From Candidatus Altimarinota bacterium (lineage in GTDB: Bacteria; Patescibacteriota; Gracilibacteria; BD1-5; UBA2023), in contig JANQGT010000004.1 in NCBI GenBank assembly GCA_028277205.1, forward strand, positions 40,348 through 104,347: 64,000 nucleotides of DNA, written 5' to 3'. The notes beneath the pieces are model-generated. The model was given only the letters and a program-made list of their open reading frames with translations, did not search any database and was not told the DNA's origin. This document shows, in pieces, positions 4,225 to 56,700 of the stretch; within the stretch, counting starts at the first letter, position 1; each line of letters opens with the position of its first letter. Made by a program: the position numbers and the translations under genes.

Positions 4225-6219
4225 TTATTTATCGTATGTCAAACTGTTTTTCTCACTCTCGCGAATGTCCTCGCGCACTGTCTCTACCAGCTCCAGATCA
4301 CGAAAATCGGCGACCCGCAGCTCCGGCAGTCCGCTCTGCCGCACACCGTACACCTCGCCCGGACCCCGCAGTGCGAGATCAGTCTCCGCAAGCTCGAAGC
4401 CGTCCTGTGTCGACTCTATGGCAGCGAGGCGCTCGTTTTTTTGCTCGGTCGTGGAAAACAGGTAGCAGTACGACTGATGCGATCCGCGCCCGACCCGCCC
4501 GCGAAACTGATGCAGCTGCGACAGTCCAAATCGCTCTGCACCCTCGATGCACATGACGGTGGCATTCGGATTATCGACGCCGACCTCTACGACGGAGGTA
4601 CTGGAGAGGATGTCGATATCTCCCCGGTTGAATGCGTCGATGATATCCCGCTTTTCCTGGCTGGACAGGCGCCCGTGCAGGAGTCCGATACGCCGATTTG
4701 AAAATATCTCGGAAAGTCGCTCGAATGTCTGTGTGGCACTCGCGACCTCCAGTTTTTCGCTGTCCTCGACGAGCGGGGAGATCCAGTAGACCTGCCGTCC
4801 GCTCTCGATCTCGCGGTCGATCCAGCGGTGTGCGCGCTCGCGCTCGGACGCGGGGATCACCGCCGTGTGGATGAGCTTTCGACCGGCAGGATACTCATCC
4901 AGGATCGAGAGATCCTGATCGCCGTAGAGCGTGATGGTGAGCGTACGGGGAATGGGTGTGGCGGTCATGGAGAGCACGTGCGGATAGACATGCGAATCCG
5001 AGAGTGACTCATCCGCAAAGCTGTCCTCGAGGCGTTTTCGCTGATCCACGCCAAATCGGTGCTGCTCGTCGATGATGGCGTAGACGAGCCTGTGAAATCT
5101 GACATCCTCCTGGATGAGCGCGTGCGTACCAAATATGATATCGGTCTCATGATTTGAGAGGCGCATTTTGGCGTCTTGTTTTTCGCGGGCGGTCATTCAT
5201 CCCACCAGCAGATCACTGCGGACACCGAGGGGAAATCCCAGTGCCTCGAATCCCTCGAAATGCTGACGAGCTAAAATCTCCGTCGGCGCCATCACCGCGA
5301 CCTGTCCGCCCGACTCCAGGATCGCATGCAGTCCCGTCGCAAATGCGACTGCCGTCTTTCCGGTGCCGACATCTCCCTGCAGGAGGCGATACATCGCCCG
5401 ATCGCCCGCCATGTCCTGCAGGATCTGGTAGCAGACTTTTTTTTGCGTCGTGGTAAATGTATAGGAAAAATGCCCAAGAATCGCTTTCATACGCTCGGCG
5501 CTCAGCGGGATAGAGACAGTGCGTCCGCGAGTCACGTCCGTATGCAGTTCGCGCTTTTTCGCATGCTCCGACTGGACGGTGTAGAGCTCCTCGTATGCGA
5601 GCATCCCGCGCGCCCTATCCGCATCCTCCCGCGATGCGGGAAAATGGATCGTCTCGACCGCCTCCGCCTTTGTCGGAAAATCGTGTTTGCGGCGAATATA
5701 TTCGGACAGTATATCGGACAGTCCGGAAATATGCGATCGCACCAGCGGCATTTTTTCGGCGATCCAGTATCCGGGCACGGTATTGACGTCGCTGTATATC
5801 CCCTCCAGTCCGGACGAGTGATCGATATGCGATATATCCGGCGAGACAAACGAGAGCTTTGAGTACTGATACCTCGCCTTGCCATGGAGGACGACCATAC
5901 TCCCCGGCTGAAATTTTCTGGTCATGCCCCGCTGCCCAAACCACACCGCCTCGGCATATATCCCGTCCGCATCGCGGATGACAGCTTTCTGCAGGAGCTT
6001 GCCCGTGCGCGTGCGCTCCTCTGTCAGCGTCTCGATCATCACTCGCATCGTATTGGCTTCTTTGAGATTTATAGCGAAAAAATGCTCGACGACATTGGTC
6101 TTGTCTTTGTAGTCACGCGGATACAGCGCCAAGAAATCCTCGACGGTTTGGACTCCCGCATCGCCGAGTTTTTTGATATGGCGGGATGTGGTTTTGAGGA
6201 GTGTAGGAGTGAGATGCAT
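4225..6219 (-). CDS. recG: ATP-dependent DNA helicase RecG
   Basis: ORFs 5197..6219 and 4225..5196 abut in frame at TGA 5197..5199. Motifs seen: GDVGTGKT, DEQHRFG, MTATPIPRT, HQFRGRVGRG. Confidence 0.95.
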
Positions 6220-6524
6220 ACGATACTTCGCGATTTTACGGGCGCCATTGTACGCAGGGATATGAAAAAAGTACAGCGAACGGAAGTTCTTTCCCGTCTC
6301 TTTAGCGAATGCGTATGAGTCCGAAACAGTTTTGACATGCTATCATGGGCTATGGTGATGAAACGATTGTTTGCAGCGTCCTCCTCGCGCCTGCGTCCAA
6401 ACATTCGAGTCGTGTCCGGGTACGATCGATATCGAAATGTATTGTCTTTTTGTCGATTCCTATTAGGATACGTGACTATACTGCATTGTTTTCAGTTTAG
6501 TGTCTCTGTAATCACTATCCAGCC

Positions 6525-7784
6525 ATGATCGACCTCAAACTCCTGCGCGCCGATCCCGAGTCCATGCGCGACACGCTGGTACGTCGGTACGTCGATTTCG
6601 ATCTCGACGCGTTTCTCGCACTCGACGAGCGCCATCGCATGATGAAAAGTCAAATCGACGAAAAAAAACACGAGCAGTCGCAGGCATCCGATCGCGACAG
6701 TGCCCGCGCGCTGAAAGAGGAAATCCGAACGCTCGAAGAAGCATACAAAACCCTCTCTGATGAGCACACACGCCTCTGGAAAGAGCTGCCGAATTTCCTG
6801 GATCCAGACACACCGATGGGTCCGGACGAGGAGTCAAACGAAGTCATACGCACAGTCGGCGAGCCGCGTGTGTTTGATTTTGCTATAAAAGATCATGAGG
6901 AGATCGGCGTCGCGCGCGGCTGGATCGACAAAGAGGCGGCGGCAAAGGTATCGGGATCGCGATTTGCGTATCTGTACGGCGAGCTCGTGATGTTGCAGCG
7001 CGCACTGTCAAATTATGTTTTTGACATCCTGACATCGCGCGAAGCGCTGCGCGCCATCATCGATCATGCGGGCATCGACGCGTCCGATGCGCCGTTTATC
7101 CCCGTCAATCCGCCCATCATCGTCAATCAGGAAACCCTGGACAAGATGGGGCGCCTGCATCCGACGGAGCAGCGCTATATGCTGCACGATCAGGGACAGG
7201 TGCTCATCGGGAGCGCGGAGCACTCGCTCGGACCCATCCCGATGGATCGGATATTCGAGGAGTCGGAGCTACCCCTGCGGTACGTCGCGGAGACGCCGGC
7301 ATTTCGGGGAGAGGCGGGCACCTACGGCAAAGACATGCGCGGAATCCTGCGCATGCACCAGTTTGACAAAATCGAGATGGAGATTTTCTCTGCACCAGAG
7401 GACGCAGAGCAGGAGCACGCGCTCTGCATCGCGATACAGGAGCACGTCACCGCATCACTCGGCATCCCGTACCGTCTGGTACGAAACGCCTCCGGGGACG
7501 CGGGATCCATGGACTACCGCCAGTACGATATAGAGGTATGGCTCCCATGACAGCAAAAATACCGCGAGACCCACACCGCCGACTACATGACAGACTATCA
7601 GGCGCGTCGGCTGGGTATTCGCGTACGTCGGCAGACCGGAGAAAAACAGTATGTGCACATGGTCGATGCCACCGCCGTATCGCAGCGTCCGCTCATCGCC
7701 ATCCTCGAAAACTACCAAAACGAAGACATGACCGTGAGTGTGCCAGAGGTGCTCGTACCGTATCTTGGAAAAGAGGTGATGTAG
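6525..7784 (+). CDS. serS: Seryl-tRNA synthetase
   Basis: ORFs 6525..7550 and 7587..7784 share a frame across one TGA. The product has an N-terminal coiled-coil arm and a class II core (FRGEAGTYGKDMRGILRMHQF). The stop is TAG. Confidence 0.9.
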
Positions 7785-7981
7785 GAAGCGCGCCTCACCC
7801 CAAAGATCAGCCATCACCCCGAGTTCGTACGATTTTTCATTCATTTCTGTACGTCATGGAGTTTTTTGGGTCATGGGAGAGAAGTGTATAAACTTCAAAT
7901 TTCCGCTGCATTCAAAGCAAGATTTCGTCGAGATACGGCGCTGTAGCTCTCTCGAGAAATGAATTTTTCTAGATGAATAAT

Positions 7982-8095
7982 CCCCAGCCGATAGACAGGG
8001 GGCTTTTATCGCCCTGCGGGCGAATTTCAAGCTGCGTTCGTCCTCACTGTCGTTCGGATGCTCTCCATCCACCGGTTAGTAAACCGGTGGTTTTT
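7982..8095 (+). repeat. Structured intergenic element, copy A (family of 3; candidate ncRNA or composite terminator)
   Basis: The core GGGGGCTTTTATCGCCCTGCGGGCGAATTTCAAGCTGCGTTCGTCCTCACTGTCGTTCGGATGCTCTCCATCCACCGGTTAGTAAACCGGTGGTTTTT is nearly identical to 56336..56435 (+) and 31862..31960 (-). It lies about 200 nt 3' of serS. Confidence 0.7.
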
Positions 8096-8210
8096 CGAAA
8101 GGAATGCATAAAGAGGGCGTTTTGCATTTTATGTCAATAGCCTCTAACACATGCCGCCGTCGCAATAACGACTGCGACTATAAAAGACACTAAAAAATTT
8201 CAGCCACTCC

Positions 8211-31697: not shown

Positions 31698-31861
31698 AAA
31701 AAAATCATGCAAAAAAATCTGCACGTATACTAATGAAAAATCCGCAAAATCACGAAAATCATACAATCAAAATGGCTCAATTATGTTTATCGCGAGTCTG
31801 GATGTATGATGATATTGAGGTTTTTGGCGATCACTTATCCCCCCCTTTATAAATTCCACCG

Positions 31862-31976
31862 AAAAACCACCGGTTTACTAACCGGTGGATGGAGAGTATC
31901 CGAACGATAGTGAGGACGAATGTAATTCGAAACTCGCCCGCAGGGCGATAAAAGCCCCCGGTCTACCGACCGGGGG
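31862..31976 (-). repeat. Structured intergenic element, copy B (inverted relative to A and C)
   Basis: The reverse complement matches copies A and C over about 95 nt. The leading hairpin is CCCCCGGTC-GGTA-GACCGGGGG. It lies about 165 nt 3' of the minus-strand SLT-domain gene. Confidence 0.7.
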
Positions 31977-32141
31977 TTGTTTACAATCTGCGCACCATAC
32001 GAATCTCGAAATATTGCTTCGCCTGCCTCCCTGTAAAGTGTGAATGTCGTTTTGAAGATCATCGCTTCAATCACACGAGAGTCTCGATGTTTCTGCCCTA
32101 TGCGAGACGTACTGATCAGGAAAAGCTCGCATCAATCAAGA

Positions 32142-33737
32142 CTACTGCGCACGGGCATTGTCCGTCCACTGACTCGCTCCATAGTACGCCGCGGCGACAT
32201 CCATATAGTCGTCCACAGTCTGGACACTCGCCATACCGGGCATGCCGTGGTTGGCGCGCTTGGCTGCCTCGAGATTTTTTTGGGAAAATGCCGGACCGGT
32301 GTGATAGAGCACCATGGCACGTCCCCACATTCCTTCCGCCTGGGGTCTTTCATACATCTCGGCGAGGTACGCGGCGGTCGCGATGATCTGGTGGATGGGA
32401 TTTTCACGTTCGAGGTCTCCCGATTTGATTGCTTCGATTTCTTCTTCGCTCAATACCGGTTTGCCATCCTGTCCCTCGGGGACGGTGGAGAGCGCCGAGA
32501 AATCCGCACTGGCAAATCGATTTGGCACTCCTCCCGATGCGAGTCATTCCCATGTGCCGTCGATGATCTGTCCCAGTCCGTACGCCGATGAATTCGGATT
32601 TTTTACATGAGGGCGAAATGCACTTTCCTTATAAAACAGCTGCAACAGCAAACCCTGCGGAATGCCGAGATGACCGCATACAAATTCGACTGTCTCCCCA
32701 TACGGCGACGTATTCATAAATGCTTCCTTGTTCTCGGCGGCAGCCTCGGGCGATGTATAGTATTCGCTGGCTCGTGCGTCGATGGATGCGCTCGTCGGCG
32801 GTGCACCGCGATGCACGGCAGCGCGTCCGAGCTGGATATTTCCCCGCAGCGCGCTAAGCTGCTCTCGGCCGGTGGCGGTATCCGGTCCGCGCATCTCGAC
32901 CACGCTCACCGTCTGTCCGTGCGACAGCATCGCCGGGACCTCGCTGCCAGCACGATAGTATCCTGGCTCGGGTGTGGCACTGTAGACAAACGCCTCTCCG
33001 TCGATACTGATGCGCGAAGCCCCGGTATCCAGCAGGAGTTGACTCGCGGGAAAATTTCCATTCGCGCTCGACTCCGGACCGAGATTGACCCGAAAACTGC
33101 TTCACTCCGAGAGATTTTCCCGCCTGAAAGCCCTGCCAGGCTTGTCGGGATCGCGCATGAGCACGGACGACAGATCCGCACCCGAGAGCATGAGCGCCGA
33201 GAGATCATCGGCAGTCAGCGCCTCAAATGATGCGACGACCTCACGGGTTTCCTCACCGGTCTCGGGATCGACACGGGTTTTTTCCAGTAATCGCACTGCC
33301 TCGTCCGATCCGGATCTCGAAAGACGCAGGAGCGCCTCGACGCGCGCTTTCGCATCATGCGCCTCGAGCATCGCCCGGCGCAGCGCATCAAGACTTTCGG
33401 CAGACTCCGGTTGTTCTTGTGTTGATTCACTCATCGACTCCGCACCCGTTCCCGCTTCACGTTTGCCTCGAAATGGATCCATTTCCTCATCACGACGTCG
33501 TGCCGCTATTTCACTCTCGGTGGCGTGCTCGGCTCATTCATACTCGGCGGTCGTTCTTTGCGCCGTACTGGTCGCGTTTTGCAGTCGCTCGCCGTGCTTC
33601 TCTCGAAGTTTCTCACGGATTTCCGCGACTTTTTGTTGTTCGGGGGTTGTCGGAGCTTTCGGCGCATCAAAGCGTTCAACCGATACCGGACGTTCACGTT
33701 TCGTCTCTGTGACGGGAGCGTTTGGAGTCTCTGCCAT
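32142..33737 (-). CDS. Lytic transglycosylase (SLT) domain protein with a long charged N-terminal region and no signal peptide
   Basis: Four same-frame ORFs (33534..33737, 33102..33482, 32544..32930, 32142..32528) join across three TGA. The SLT signature is LLLQLFYKESAFRP...SSAYGLGQIIDGTW. Confidence 0.7.
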
Positions 33738-33794
33738 GATAGTATCGTCGGTGAAAAAATCAGATAAATTATGTCTTTGTATTCACAATTGTCG

Positions 33795-42683: not shown

Positions 42684-42770
42684 CTTGCAAAACCCGCAAT
42701 ATTTCGTAGTATCGCCTTTTCGTTTTCAGCCCGCCCGTCATGAAATTCGCGCTCGTCCAGGGGAGTATGA
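42684..42770 (+). repeat. 87-bp direct repeat, left copy (promoter + 5'UTR + first 10 codons of the FMN-reductase gene, ending in a dead stub)
   Basis: It matches 43424..43510 with 4 mismatches. It contains TTGCAA-16-TAGTAT (42685..42712) and ATGAAATTCGCGCTCGTCCAGGGGAGTATGA. The stub reads MKFALVQGSMSHKI then stop. Confidence 0.85.
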
Positions 42771-42825
42771 GTCACAAAATATAATCTTTCATCATAGATG
42801 ATTTATGATAGAATGAATATGGTCA

Positions 42826-43423: not shown

Positions 43424-43510
43424 CTTGCAAAACCCGCAATATTTCGTAGTATCGCCTTTTCGTCTTCAGCCTATCCGTCATGAAATTCGCGCTCGTCCAG
43501 GGGAGTATGA
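43424..43510 (+). repeat. 87-bp direct repeat, right copy (functional promoter and start of the FMN-reductase gene)
   Basis: See the left copy. TTGCAA-16-TAGTAT lies at 43425..43452. Confidence 0.85.
43425..43452 (+). promoter_or_regulatory. Candidate promoter of the FMN-reductase gene (duplicated at 42685..42712)
   Basis: TTGCAA-16 nt-TAGTAT, 28 nt upstream of ATG 43480. Confidence 0.4.
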
Positions 43511-44007
43511 ATCCGCACTCAAATACCGCGCTCCTCTGCGGTGAGATCAGAAATACTCTCCGAGAGCGAAATATCGATCATAGGTATTTCGATCTGAGAG
43601 AGCACGACTTTCCTATGGCGGGAGATTTTGGAGAGTATGGTCAAAACATTGCGAATATTCGTACGCAGTTTGGTGAGTGTTCGCACTTTCTCTTCGCCTT
43701 TCCGATTTATAATTATTCGGTCTCAGGTCCGTTTATGAATTTTCTCAATCTCATCGGTGACAAGCATGTTTTTGATATGAAGCCGTTTGGTATCATCGGT
43801 GTGAGTAGCGGCATTCGTTCGTGGCTCTCGGAGTACGACCTCGCAAAGCCCCTCGTGCTGCACGAGGGCGCGATCGCAGTCGGACCCATCGTGCACGCGT
43901 GGGCGGAGGATTTTCAGGATGTCGGCATCGGAAATCCGAAAGTCCTCGAAAAAGCGAACGAGCTCATAGACCGGCTCTCACGTCTCGATATTCGCCAGGG
44001 CGCATAG
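43480..44007 (+). CDS. NAD(P)H-dependent FMN reductase family flavoprotein
   Basis: MKFALVQGSMNPHSNT...FLFAFPIYNYSVSGPFMNFL matches the family pattern. Confidence 0.65.
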   Translation: MKFALVQGSMNPHSNTALLCGEIRNTLRERNIDHRYFDLREHDFPMAGDFGEYGQNIANIRTQFGECSHFLFAFPIYNYSVSGPFMNFLNLIGDKHVFDMKPFGIIGVSSGIRSWLSEYDLAKPLVLHEGAIAVGPIVHAWAEDFQDVGIGNPKVLEKANELIDRLSRLDIRQGA

Positions 44008-54893: not shown

Positions 54894-54971
54894 GGCGGAT
54901 GTAGTTCAGTCGGTTAGAACACCAGACTGTGAATCTGGATGTCGTGGGTTCGAATCCCATCATTCGCCCCA
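54894..54971 (+). tRNA. tRNA-His (anticodon GUG) with encoded G-1
   Basis: G GCGGATG TA GTTC AGTCGGTTA GAAC A CCAGA CTGTGAA TCTGG ATGTC GTGGG TTCGAAT CCCAT CATTCGC C CCA. Confidence 0.9.
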
Positions 54972-55007
54972 TTTTCCCATACGCTTTATTTCCTAACCCT
55001 ACGCGAT

Positions 55008-56309
55008 ATGGCACCCACTGTAGAGAAAGATTTCGGACCGATCGTCAGTGAAATGGAACCCATCAAAAAAATCTCTGTCGGAGACGTCGTGCGATGACGT
55101 GCGATCCTCGTGACAGATCGGATGATTTTGGTGGATATAGACGGGCAGTTTACCGGGATTATTTCCGGTTCGCATCTGCACTCGTCACTCGAGGACGTCT
55201 CGCAAATCACCGTCGGATCCGAGATAGAGTCGATCGTCATCGAAGAAGACGAAGAGGCGGGACTCATCATCCTCTCACTGCGAAAGGCAAGTCAGGCACG
55301 ACTCATCGAGCGCCTGCATCAAAACTTTGATACGAAAGAAATCATCACCGTCATACCAAACGAGGCAAACAAAGGCGGACTGCTGATCGATCTCGACGGT
55401 ATCAAAGGATTTATCCCGGTCTCGCAGCTGACTCCCATGAACTATCCGCGCGTCGAGGGCGCGAACACCGAGAAAATCCTCGAGCACCTGCGGGGACTCG
55501 TCGGCAAGCCTTTCAAGGTACGGGTCATCAATGTCGACGATAATGGTCGAAAGATTATTTTCTCTGAAAAAGCAGCGATCGAGGAGCAGCGGATGACCGC
55601 GCTCTCGAAGCTCAAGGTCGGCGACACGGTCGACGGTGTCGTCAGCGGTATTCTCACGTACGGACTTTTTGTCACGTTTGAGGGACTGGAGGGACTGGTA
55701 CACGTCAGCGAAATCGACTGGGGACACGTCAGCGATCCGTCAAAATTTGCAAAAGTCGGCGATCATATGAAGGTCCAGGTCATCGGCATCGAGCAGGAAA
55801 AGATCAGCCTCTCTATCAAGCGCCTGAAGAAAAATCCCTGGGACGATCTCGCCGAGCGCTACAAAGAGGGCGACGTGGTGAAAGCGCCCGTCGTGAAGAT
55901 CTCGCAGTTCGGGATATTTCTGGAGCTCGCGGGCGGTGTCAATGGACTCGTGCATCTCTCCGAGATATCGCACGAGCCGGTCGAAAATATGGAGGATATC
56001 GTGCGCATCGGCGATGAGGTCGAGGCAAAGATCATCGCATTTGATCTGTCGGCAAAGCGGATAGGACTCTCCATGAAAGCCCTCGTGGAAGCACCGGAAG
56101 ACACATCGCAAACAGCAGCCGAGGAGACAATCAAAGAGCAAAAATCTGAAATCGAAGCGGAAGGCGAAAGCGCGAAGATCACGACCACAAAGCGCACAAA
56201 ATCAAAAAAATCCGAGCAAAAGACAGATGAGCCGATACAGGAGCAGCCGAGAGCGGCAAATGAAAACGAAGCCCCCTCGGAGACACCGGAGCAAGCCAAG
56301 GCGGCATAA
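55008..56309 (+). CDS. rpsA: 30S ribosomal protein S1 (four S1 domains, acidic/lysine-rich tail)
   Basis: ATG 55008 joins ORF 55110..56309 across TGA (GDVVR-G-RAILV). Repeated G..V.G.V......G.FV....G..GLVH.SE modules. Confidence 0.9.
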
Positions 56310-56319
56310 TGAGTAAACT

Positions 56320-56435
56320 CCCCCCTGTCTACTGACAGGGGGCTTTTATCGCCCTGCGGACGAATTTCAAACTGCGTTCGTCCTCACTATCGTTCGGATA
56401 CTCTCCATCCACCGGTTTAGTAAACCGGTGGTTTT
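56320..56435 (+). repeat. Structured intergenic element, copy C
   Basis: It begins 10 nt after the rpsA stop. The leading hairpin is CCCCCTGTC-TACT-GACAGGGGG + CTTTTAT, followed by the conserved core ending CCACCGGTTTAGTAAACCGGTGG + TTTT. Confidence 0.7.
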
Positions 56436-56700
56436 GCGGAGGGAGTATCATGGAGATACGCGCATAGTGTCGAGAGACCTGTCCGTACATTCTCAAAACA
56501 TTTTGATATCTATACAAACACGACACGCTCCAGTCCGGAGCGTGTTTTCAGCGTGTATGCGGGGCTGTTTTCGTGAGTGTGTTTTTGCATTTGAAAGCAC
56601 AAAAATTTTCATACAATGCAGAGCACTGCAGACAGCACGAATACGCGTAGCTGTTTGGGCATCGTCTATCTTTTTCGGATATTTCATACCAGTCATCCCC

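Follow-up and report, generated by a model that had tools for sequence, protein, structure and literature searches.

SPRITE, a non-coding repeat of less than 200 bp in S. pneumoniae, combines a terminator-like hairpin with a U-rich tract and is present in about 30 copies within one species group (PMC3049150). Its terminal inverted repeats are rudimentary, no target duplication is identifiable and no IS matches it, and its copies are strongly enriched between convergent genes and lie near gene 3' ends, where co-option as a terminator was proposed by the authors (PMC3049150). By the features compared below, SPRITE appears to be the closest described analogue of a repeat found in a window of 64,000 nt from Candidatus Altimarinota bacterium (GCA_028277205.1, JANQGT010000004.1:40,348-104,347), whose assembly comprises 1.06 Mb in 52 contigs, is 93% complete and uses genetic code 25 (UGA = Gly). 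The reading favoured here, to which a probability of about 0.6 is given, is that of a lineage-specific dispersed non-coding repeat, a SPRITE- or MITE-like selfish element that is tolerated or co-opted as an intrinsic terminator; most likely it is a known kind of element, new only for this Gracilibacteria lineage.

Extent and members of the repeat family

The three copies in the window were recovered by a repeat finder, with one pairing direct, two inverted and identities of 87-91%, at the positions and on the strands given in the initial annotation (7982-8077 against 56322-56417 at 91%; inverted, 7976-8097 against 31860-31981 at 89%), and only a few substitutions separate them across the core in alignment. 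The element had been described as three copies of ~115 nt with a core of ~95 nt, of which the recurrence held, whereas both length and number proved too small: alignment of 12 genome copies set the ends of a unit of ~140 nt, 5'-GTAAAC ... TTTATAA-3', and BLAST, nhmmer and a covariance model concordantly found a far larger family in the 1.06-Mb genome, with 10 full copies, one truncated copy, five longer variants of 265 to ~340 nt and several decayed relics (Table 1, in which other contigs of the assembly are numbered C1 upwards). The boundaries are base-exact at 12 unrelated loci, with a column identity of ~0.58-0.7 within 25 nt inside either end and of 0.27, the random level, 25 nt outside. 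The consensus ends TAAACTCCCCC and GGGGGAATTTA match as inverted repeats at 10 of 12 positions, single copies matching worse, and the GC content of the element is 50-55%. No target-site duplication was found, the 25-nt flanks of the 12 copies being without matching short direct repeats; a TA or TAA duplication of the IS630- or IS5-like kind was rejected as incompatible with the position of the inverted repeat, in addition to the unmatched flanks.

The end modules occur in differing combinations among copies. The variants of 300-340 nt were observed to carry the GTAAAC-hairpin 5' module of the 265-nt variants, a common AT-rich interior of ~200 nt and individual hairpin/T-run/G-run ends, and one of them adjoins a decayed short copy (C2:20700-21240). 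The 251-nt interior of the long variant gave just short AT-rich chance matches in relatives. Just past the 3' end of three copies (window 8096-8125, C39:2560-2590 and C1:23250-23275) lies the motif GCGTTTTTGC(T)ATTTT or the palindrome TTGCATAAAATGCAA, which is not part of the repeat in the remaining copies. Other repetitive sequence was noted as a 90-nt direct repeat in the window (42684-42773 and 43424-43513; 94%, 740 nt apart, repeat finder) and, unrelated to the element, as repeat-dense stretches with up to 48 self-hits at C39:23864-25521, C43:11652-12746, C5:1-1029, C10:1-1443 and C17:9547-9930.

Within the window, copy A has a diverged 5' end (GAATAATC in place of GTAAAC) and copy B a diverged 3' tail (GCGGAGGGAGTATCAT). 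The genes initially named upstream of the three copies, serS, rpsA and an SLT-domain gene, are correct once UGA is read as Gly under code 25; apparent frameshifts in serS and the SLT gene were an artefact of table 11, and table 25 gave single intact ORFs with full domain coverage.

Table 1. Coordinates of the repeat family, its parts in the window and the genes upstream of the window copies (positions without a contig label refer to the window)
Feature	Position	Strand	Remarks
Copy A, whole unit	7971..8111	+	nhmmer E=7e-43, CM 146 bits
Copy A, first hairpin CCCCAGCC..ACAGGGGG + CTTTT	7982..8007	+	Least perfect among first hairpins
Copy A, C/U-rich conserved core CGTCCTCACTGTCGTTCGGATGCTCTCCATCC	8039..8070	+	4/30 columns variable, 10 copies
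Copy A, second hairpin CCACCGGTTAGTAAACCGGTGG + TTTTT	8069..8095	+	Matches intrinsic-terminator pattern
Copy B, whole unit	56311..56451	+	nhmmer and covariance model
Copy B, first hairpin CCCCCTGTCTACTGACAGGGGG + CTTTT	56321..56347	+	Terminator-like
Copy B, second hairpin CCACCGGTTTAGTAAACCGGTGG + TTTT	56409..56435	+	
Copy C, whole unit	31847..31986	-	nhmmer and covariance model
Copy C, first hairpin CCCCCGGTCGGTAGACCGGGGG	31955..31976	-	Terminator-like
Copy C, second hairpin CCACCGGTTAGTAAACCGGTGG then TTTTT	31867..31888	-	
serS (seryl-tRNA synthetase)	6525..7784	+	Code 25, one UGA=Gly; 186 nt upstream of copy A
rpsA (ribosomal protein S1)	54939..56309	+	Code 25; stop codon 1 nt before copy B
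SLT-domain (lytic transglycosylase-like) gene	32142..33788	-	155 nt upstream of copy C
Full copies outside the window	C1:23097, C18:5967(-), C39:2428, C39:35874, C17:39619, C47:6040, C36:3726		139-147 nt
5'-truncated copy	C2:133333(-)		
265-nt variants	C5:3391, C3:18606		Both termini common to short unit, interior differs; mutually 98% identical
~300-340-nt variants	C27:~2125-2456, C2:128031-128330, C2:20700-21010		Unit's 5' module and equivalent 3' hairpin/T-run/G-run module
Diverged relics	C2:25699, C2:21109, C20:19368, C37:35585, C25:13837; tail remnant just left of C3 copy		

Terminator-like hairpins and the conserved core

Each unit runs from GTAAAC through a C-rich hairpin followed by CTTTT and a spacer of ~65 nt, the last part of which is a strongly conserved C/U-rich 30-mer, to a second hairpin followed by TTTTT and a G-rich/AT-rich tail (CGGGGGAATTTATAA). 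Both hairpins are GC-rich, appear homologous to one another and are followed by a T-run on the same strand. The G/C hairpin with U-tract at the front and the terminator hairpin at the end, both described at the outset, were present in a terminator pattern scan (copy A at 8069-8090 followed by TTTTT, copy B at 56321-56342 followed by CTTTT, copy C at 31976-31955 and 31888-31867), and for the three window copies the scan flagged nothing else terminator-like in the stretch from the upstream stop codon to the element. Downstream of serS, rpsA and the SLT gene, the element hairpins precede any other terminator-like structure, and the element probably now serves all three genes as a terminator. Native terminators of like form exist in the host genome, for example CCCCCGCGATCGCGGGGGTTTTATCG after a gene on C16, and also in a relative. 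A further hairpin, of 10 bp without mismatch (ACACGCTCC-AGT-GGAGCGTGT) and followed by TTTT, lies ~70 nt beyond the 3' end of copy B at 56523-56545; it may be the terminator that rpsA used before insertion of the element displaced it.

In one subfamily, consisting of copy C, copy C39b and, by inspection, the 265-nt variants, the second hairpin repeats the first in direct orientation; the two agree at 23 of 30 positions in copy C, with none of 2000 shuffles as good, and one of 2000 shuffles was as good for C39b, while copies C1 and B were not significant. The RNAalifold consensus holds 35 pairs, three of them with compensatory double changes, all within the two terminal hairpins; two of these three are unique to single copies (C17 and C36), and at least three compensatory pairs were reached by 8 of 500 column shuffles. 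Pairing in the second hairpin has been kept through two independent compensatory changes. The two internal helices originally proposed did not survive: GGRCGAA/TTCGTCC has an A.C mismatch in five of 10 copies and no compensatory change, and GGAT/ATCC overlaps the first two bases of the terminal hairpin, such that both cannot form fully. Single-copy folds of the spacer are mutually discordant, its internal helices are without compensatory change, and compensatory support across the whole molecule, as in a structured functional RNA, was absent from the consensus and single-copy folds. Both strands of the unit fold about equally well, as expected of hairpin DNA. A helix closing the unit end to end was rejected as an RNA feature, the complementarity not being maintained copy by copy in an alignment judged by eye.

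Pairwise identity over the whole unit is 71-91% (mean 81.5%) and very uneven, at 73% for the 5' end and first hairpin, 85% for the first half of the spacer, 96% for the 30-mer CGTCCTCACT.TCGTTCGGAT.CTCTCCATCC, 87% for the second hairpin and 61% for the 3' tail. Conservation peaks in the 30-mer that immediately precedes the second terminator: four of its 30 columns vary, against 69 of 119 elsewhere (p=7e-6). The final ~15 nt of this 30-mer recur in the 265-nt variants and the C27 variant, and G018, a genome of another genus, has a similar motif. Such a distribution of identity is the reverse of the classical MITE pattern, in which the ends are best kept, and suggests that the 30-mer may have a sequence-specific role beyond termination or TIR-dependent transposition.

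Termination alone leaves the conservation of the 30-mer unexplained, which is the main reason for keeping a second reading, an unlikely one in our judgement, in which the copies form a multicopy small-RNA or 3'-UTR-derived RNA family and their dispersal is secondary. The mRNA would end at, or leak through, the weak first terminator with its four U, the stretch of ~75-95 nt to the second terminator would accumulate, and its single-stranded core (CCUCACU ... CUCUCCAUCC) would act by binding a protein or by base-pairing to purine-rich ribosome-binding sites. Known 3'-UTR-derived small RNAs carry a seed, then a terminator hairpin, then a U-tail, and the unit shows this layout; the conserved 30-mer with its persistence in the variants, the maintained pairing of the second hairpin and the constant sense orientation of the copies to the upstream gene also speak for such an RNA. 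Set against these are the discordant middle folds, the lack of an Rfam match, size variants with truncated and decayed copies, which are typical of selfish repeats, and the absence of the family from 203 related genomes of the order, which would be unexpected for a conserved regulator. Further, no promoter-like site between the two terminators of the window copies met the scan criteria; an independent small RNA is disfavoured because it would need a promoter, and none was evident there. The initial annotation had offered an independently terminated small RNA or a composite 3'-UTR module, and the evidence divides these: the module at 3' ends agrees with the co-oriented upstream genes and is compatible with the data, whereas the independently terminated RNA gene does not agree with the missing promoter.

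Placement, distribution and the search for a partner transposase

Background genes were called with a strand-discriminating codon model self-trained on code-25 ORFs, which assigned 18 of 19 Pfam-verified genes to their correct strand and yielded 468 tandem, 104 convergent and 103 divergent spacers. Among the 12 full or 265-nt copies, six lie in convergent and five in tandem spacers, none is divergent and one is unclear (the C1 copy, in a poorly coding low-GC region), giving a convergent share of 6/12, compared with 15% among spacers overall (p=0.005). Divergent spacers hold just two members of the family, the truncated copy and a decayed one in which the second hairpin lacks three pairs. All five tandem copies are sense to both neighbours, and the annotation is robust in three of these cases: rpsA with a VTT/DedA-type gene downstream (copy B), the SLT-domain gene followed by a nucleotidyl-transferase gene, both on the minus strand (copy C), and CorA followed by a glycosyl-transferase. 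Copy A stands in a convergent spacer, between serS and a minus-strand 132-aa ORF. The co-oriented upstream gene reported for the window copies extends to every confidently annotated copy (serS, rpsA, SLT, ManC, SecF, thioredoxin-reductase-like, CorA and histidine kinase), a relation that is automatic for copies between convergent genes. The gap between upstream stop codon and element ranges from -6 to several hundred nt, and two flanking genes, one an unknown ORF on C17 and the other the opposite-strand FtsK at C39:36007, end on a terminal TAA of the element. GC skew on the element strand, a weak signal in this fragmented assembly, is positive for five and negative for seven of 12 copies; the orientation of the element follows the neighbouring gene and shows no evident link to GC skew or to the regional coding strand.

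As first proposed, the element is not a named RNA family, Rfam being without a match at gathering thresholds. Rfam gave only three tRNAs on the whole window and, for copy B at E up to 10, two noise matches of 15-19 bits against thresholds of 52-80. BLAST of the consensus, first against 41 relatives and then against 204 genomes of the order (203 others) in 54 genera, found the host genome only, and the covariance model gave three weak matches only in 88 other genomes of the family. The weak matches in G091 and G010 were rejected as generic AAAA-hairpin-TTTT terminators. Motif matches in G022 and on the host's own contig C26 were rejected as isolated 17-mers without extended similarity. The third covariance-model match, a stretch of G018 (C2:3918-4045; L033:1501-1625), is collinear with the element over ~100 nt at ~70% identity; it is single-copy, has its own terminal hairpin and lies in a convergent spacer between two terminators, next to a LysM-peptidase gene, and the orthologous spacer of the host (after the LysM-peptidase gene, C44) is without the element. 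It is possibly, though doubtfully, a distant relative of the element. The same stretch is also spanned by an 81-aa ORF. Exact element patterns were absent from the genome, metagenome and viral contig collections, phage and plasmid records gave no blastn match, and no sequence from the same species was present in any collection searched. After the closest rpsA in the protein collection (82% aa) stands a plain terminator, and the element is absent.

MITE-like behaviour had been named by the initial annotation as an observation that would speak against an RNA element, and it was found in the dispersed copies, sharp boundaries, size variants, truncation and decay and restriction to one genome, but not in a random orientation relative to genes. 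A search of the 93%-complete assembly for six transposase families found no intact partner for the element, an absence that is weak evidence; MAG assemblies often lose IS copies. DDE_3, DDE_Tnp_1 and IS110 gave no match in the assembly, and a match to the TnpB / Cas12f zinc ribbon was rejected as the ribbon of a prolyl-tRNA-synthetase-like gene (C20:~5000-6300, L028:1081-2364, minus strand), in which a CxxC...CxxC zinc ribbon is inserted. The single rve match is an IS3-type gene (C1:19812-20705), 2.4 kb from the copy closest to the consensus; it was rejected as a partner, no element-like ends having been found around it. The region C1:19800-26572 is of low GC (38-44%) and holds this sole rve gene, a ParE-like toxin with a small upstream partner, small helix-turn-helix genes and an element copy, and the termini of contig C1 carry inverted repeats of ~330 nt, both joining contig C41. 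For Y1_Tnp (PF01797), an N-terminal remnant of 32 positions (MKYRKASHAIYDCRYHSV*KTEYRR, C22:25930-26025) scored 17 bits against a cut-off of 23 bits; the HUH motif is absent there in every frame and the rest of the gene is unrecognisable. In its motif ..YHSV*KTEYRR.. a TGA (Gly in the host code) stands where the family usually has Trp. Possibly this remnant is a relic from a donor of another code, or, at 17 bits, chance.

With regard to movement, single-strand transposition of the HUH/Y1, IS200/IS605-like type would fit better than a cut-and-paste DDE transposase, a lean that follows from the lack of a target-site duplication, the poor terminal inverted repeats, the directly repeated subterminal hairpins and the conserved subterminal block. 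In its specific form, this becomes a third reading, in which a non-autonomous IS200/IS605-type (PATE/REP-like) element would move as ssDNA; its Y1 (HUH) transposase would recognise both subterminal hairpins and place the element 3' of a short target, GTAAAC. The hairpins at both ends are similar in sequence and direct, not inverted, the conserved hexamer is at the left boundary only, and no target-site duplication is seen, all of which speak for this form; the conserved block just 5' of the right hairpin has the position of the guide sequence in IS608, which is located just 5' of its right hairpin, and the weak Y1_Tnp remnant can be counted on the same side. The assembly nevertheless contains no intact Y1 transposase or TnpB, the remnant falls short of its cut-off and is without the HUH motif, the hairpin similarity is significant in one subfamily only, and the T-runs after both hairpins are already accounted for by a terminator role. 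Further, the orientation of the copies appears to track the neighbouring gene rather than GC skew, with which the mechanism would predict a link. Taken together, this specific form seems to us more unlikely than the small-RNA family.

A probable terminator-bearing repeat and its relation to known systems

The unit has been copied to many unrelated places, and from this dispersal alone we infer mobility, no empty site or insertion polymorphism having been seen. The non-autonomous mobile-repeat reading draws on the base-exact ends in unrelated spacers, the three size classes with shared termini, the nesting, truncation and decay, and the restriction to one genome. In the mechanism that we favour, both hairpin/T-run modules would act as Rho-independent terminators on the sense strand, and because they would terminate transcription, copies would survive only at sites that tolerate or profit from such a stop, namely behind genes and facing the oncoming polymerase, above all between convergent genes, whereas promoter-side copies would be truncated or decaying. 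The 3'-end placement, convergent enrichment, sense orientation in tandem spacers and lack of intact promoter-side copies are what selection would leave for a sequence that stops transcription in one direction. Several observations stand against the favoured reading: neither a target-site duplication nor a partner transposase was found, the terminal inverted repeats are weak, agreeing at 10/12 consensus positions, conservation is lowest towards the ends (61-73%) and reaches 96% in the internal 30-mer, and the sense orientation in tandem spacers is a matter of five cases.

The unit is not coding, as initially stated: indels shift every frame, and no frame or start codon is shared across copies. 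Nor is it CRISPR, the copies not being regularly spaced and Rfam giving no match, and integron attC sites and tRNA-derived SINEs were likewise rejected together with CRISPR on the grounds of housekeeping host genes, irregular spacing and the lack of any tRNA or Rfam match. A bolder version of the small-RNA reading, less probable again than either alternative discussed so far, is that the element multiplies a small regulatory RNA, each copy yielding from the 3' end of a host mRNA an RNA of ~75-95 nt with the invariant C/U-rich core CGUCCUCACU.UCGUUCGGAU.CUCUCCAUCC followed by a terminator hairpin. The core would either base-pair to Shine-Dalgarno-like purine tracts or act by titrating an RNA-binding protein; if true, a streamlined CPR bacterium would possess a multicopy post-transcriptional regulator tied to housekeeping genes (serS, rpsA, secF). 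In the least probable reading the unit is a non-mobile terminator cassette of the host, and segmental duplication or gene conversion has carried it from one gene 3' end to another. This could account for hairpins resembling native terminators such as CCCCCGCGATCGCGGGGGTTTTATCG on C16 and for end modules combined differently among copies, which suggests recombination, but it is opposed by boundaries base-identical at 12 unrelated loci, three size classes sharing termini, nested or adjacent copies, one copy whose neighbours in a low-GC island are a ParE toxin and an IS3-type gene, and the prior homology that gene conversion requires at each site.

For annotation, it matters that a repeat supplies the terminator-like signal nearest to the 3' ends of serS, rpsA, secF and further genes, which bears on calling gene ends and operons and on comparing 3' UTRs. 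Under the favoured reading of a selfish repeat used as a terminator, terminator-bearing selfish DNA would be present in a recoded candidate-phyla-radiation genome of ~1.1 Mb, where non-essential DNA is expected to be scarce. The near-invariant 30-nt core stands out, and, if its sequence-specific role is true, could be an entry point to RNA-level regulation in Gracilibacteria, of which, to our knowledge, almost nothing is known.

Of the properties by which a MITE is recognised, that of a short (<~500 bp), non-coding, multicopy sequence with defined ends was found here (10 full copies of 139-147 nt plus variants). Like the classical MITEs Correia/NEMIS of Neisseria, RUP and ERIC (PMC10969869), the Gracilibacteria element is of small size, has dispersed intergenic copies with strong secondary structure, size variants and decayed copies, and may affect neighbouring transcripts (PMC10969869). 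However, classical MITEs have well-kept, pairing terminal inverted repeats and a target-site duplication (TA in Correia and RUP), whereas this element has an inverted repeat of 10/12 at its least-conserved ends and no duplication. With REP/BIME and IS200/IS605-derived elements (PMC3333891, PMC2817692, PMC3733652) it shares GC-rich extragenic hairpins at gene 3' ends, the lack of a target duplication, hairpins at both ends in apparently the same orientation and proposed roles in termination and mRNA stability; REPs, in contrast, are 20-40 nt long, occur in hundreds of copies, with alternating orientation inside BIMEs, and have a RAYT gene alongside, compared with a unit of 140 nt in ~15-20 copies and no intact Y1 gene. 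SPRITE differs in that it is AT-rich and belongs to Firmicutes, whereas the present element is of 50-55% GC in a code-25 host, and no sequence kinship is claimed; SPRITE also forms one long 18-bp stem, compared with two tandem hairpin/T-run modules, and the Gracilibacteria element has in addition a highly conserved, unstructured C/U-rich core and longer variants sharing its termini. What it holds in common with SPRITE is the combination of a small dispersed repeat with a terminator-like fold, enrichment between convergent genes, no identifiable duplication or IS partner, and a narrow host range.
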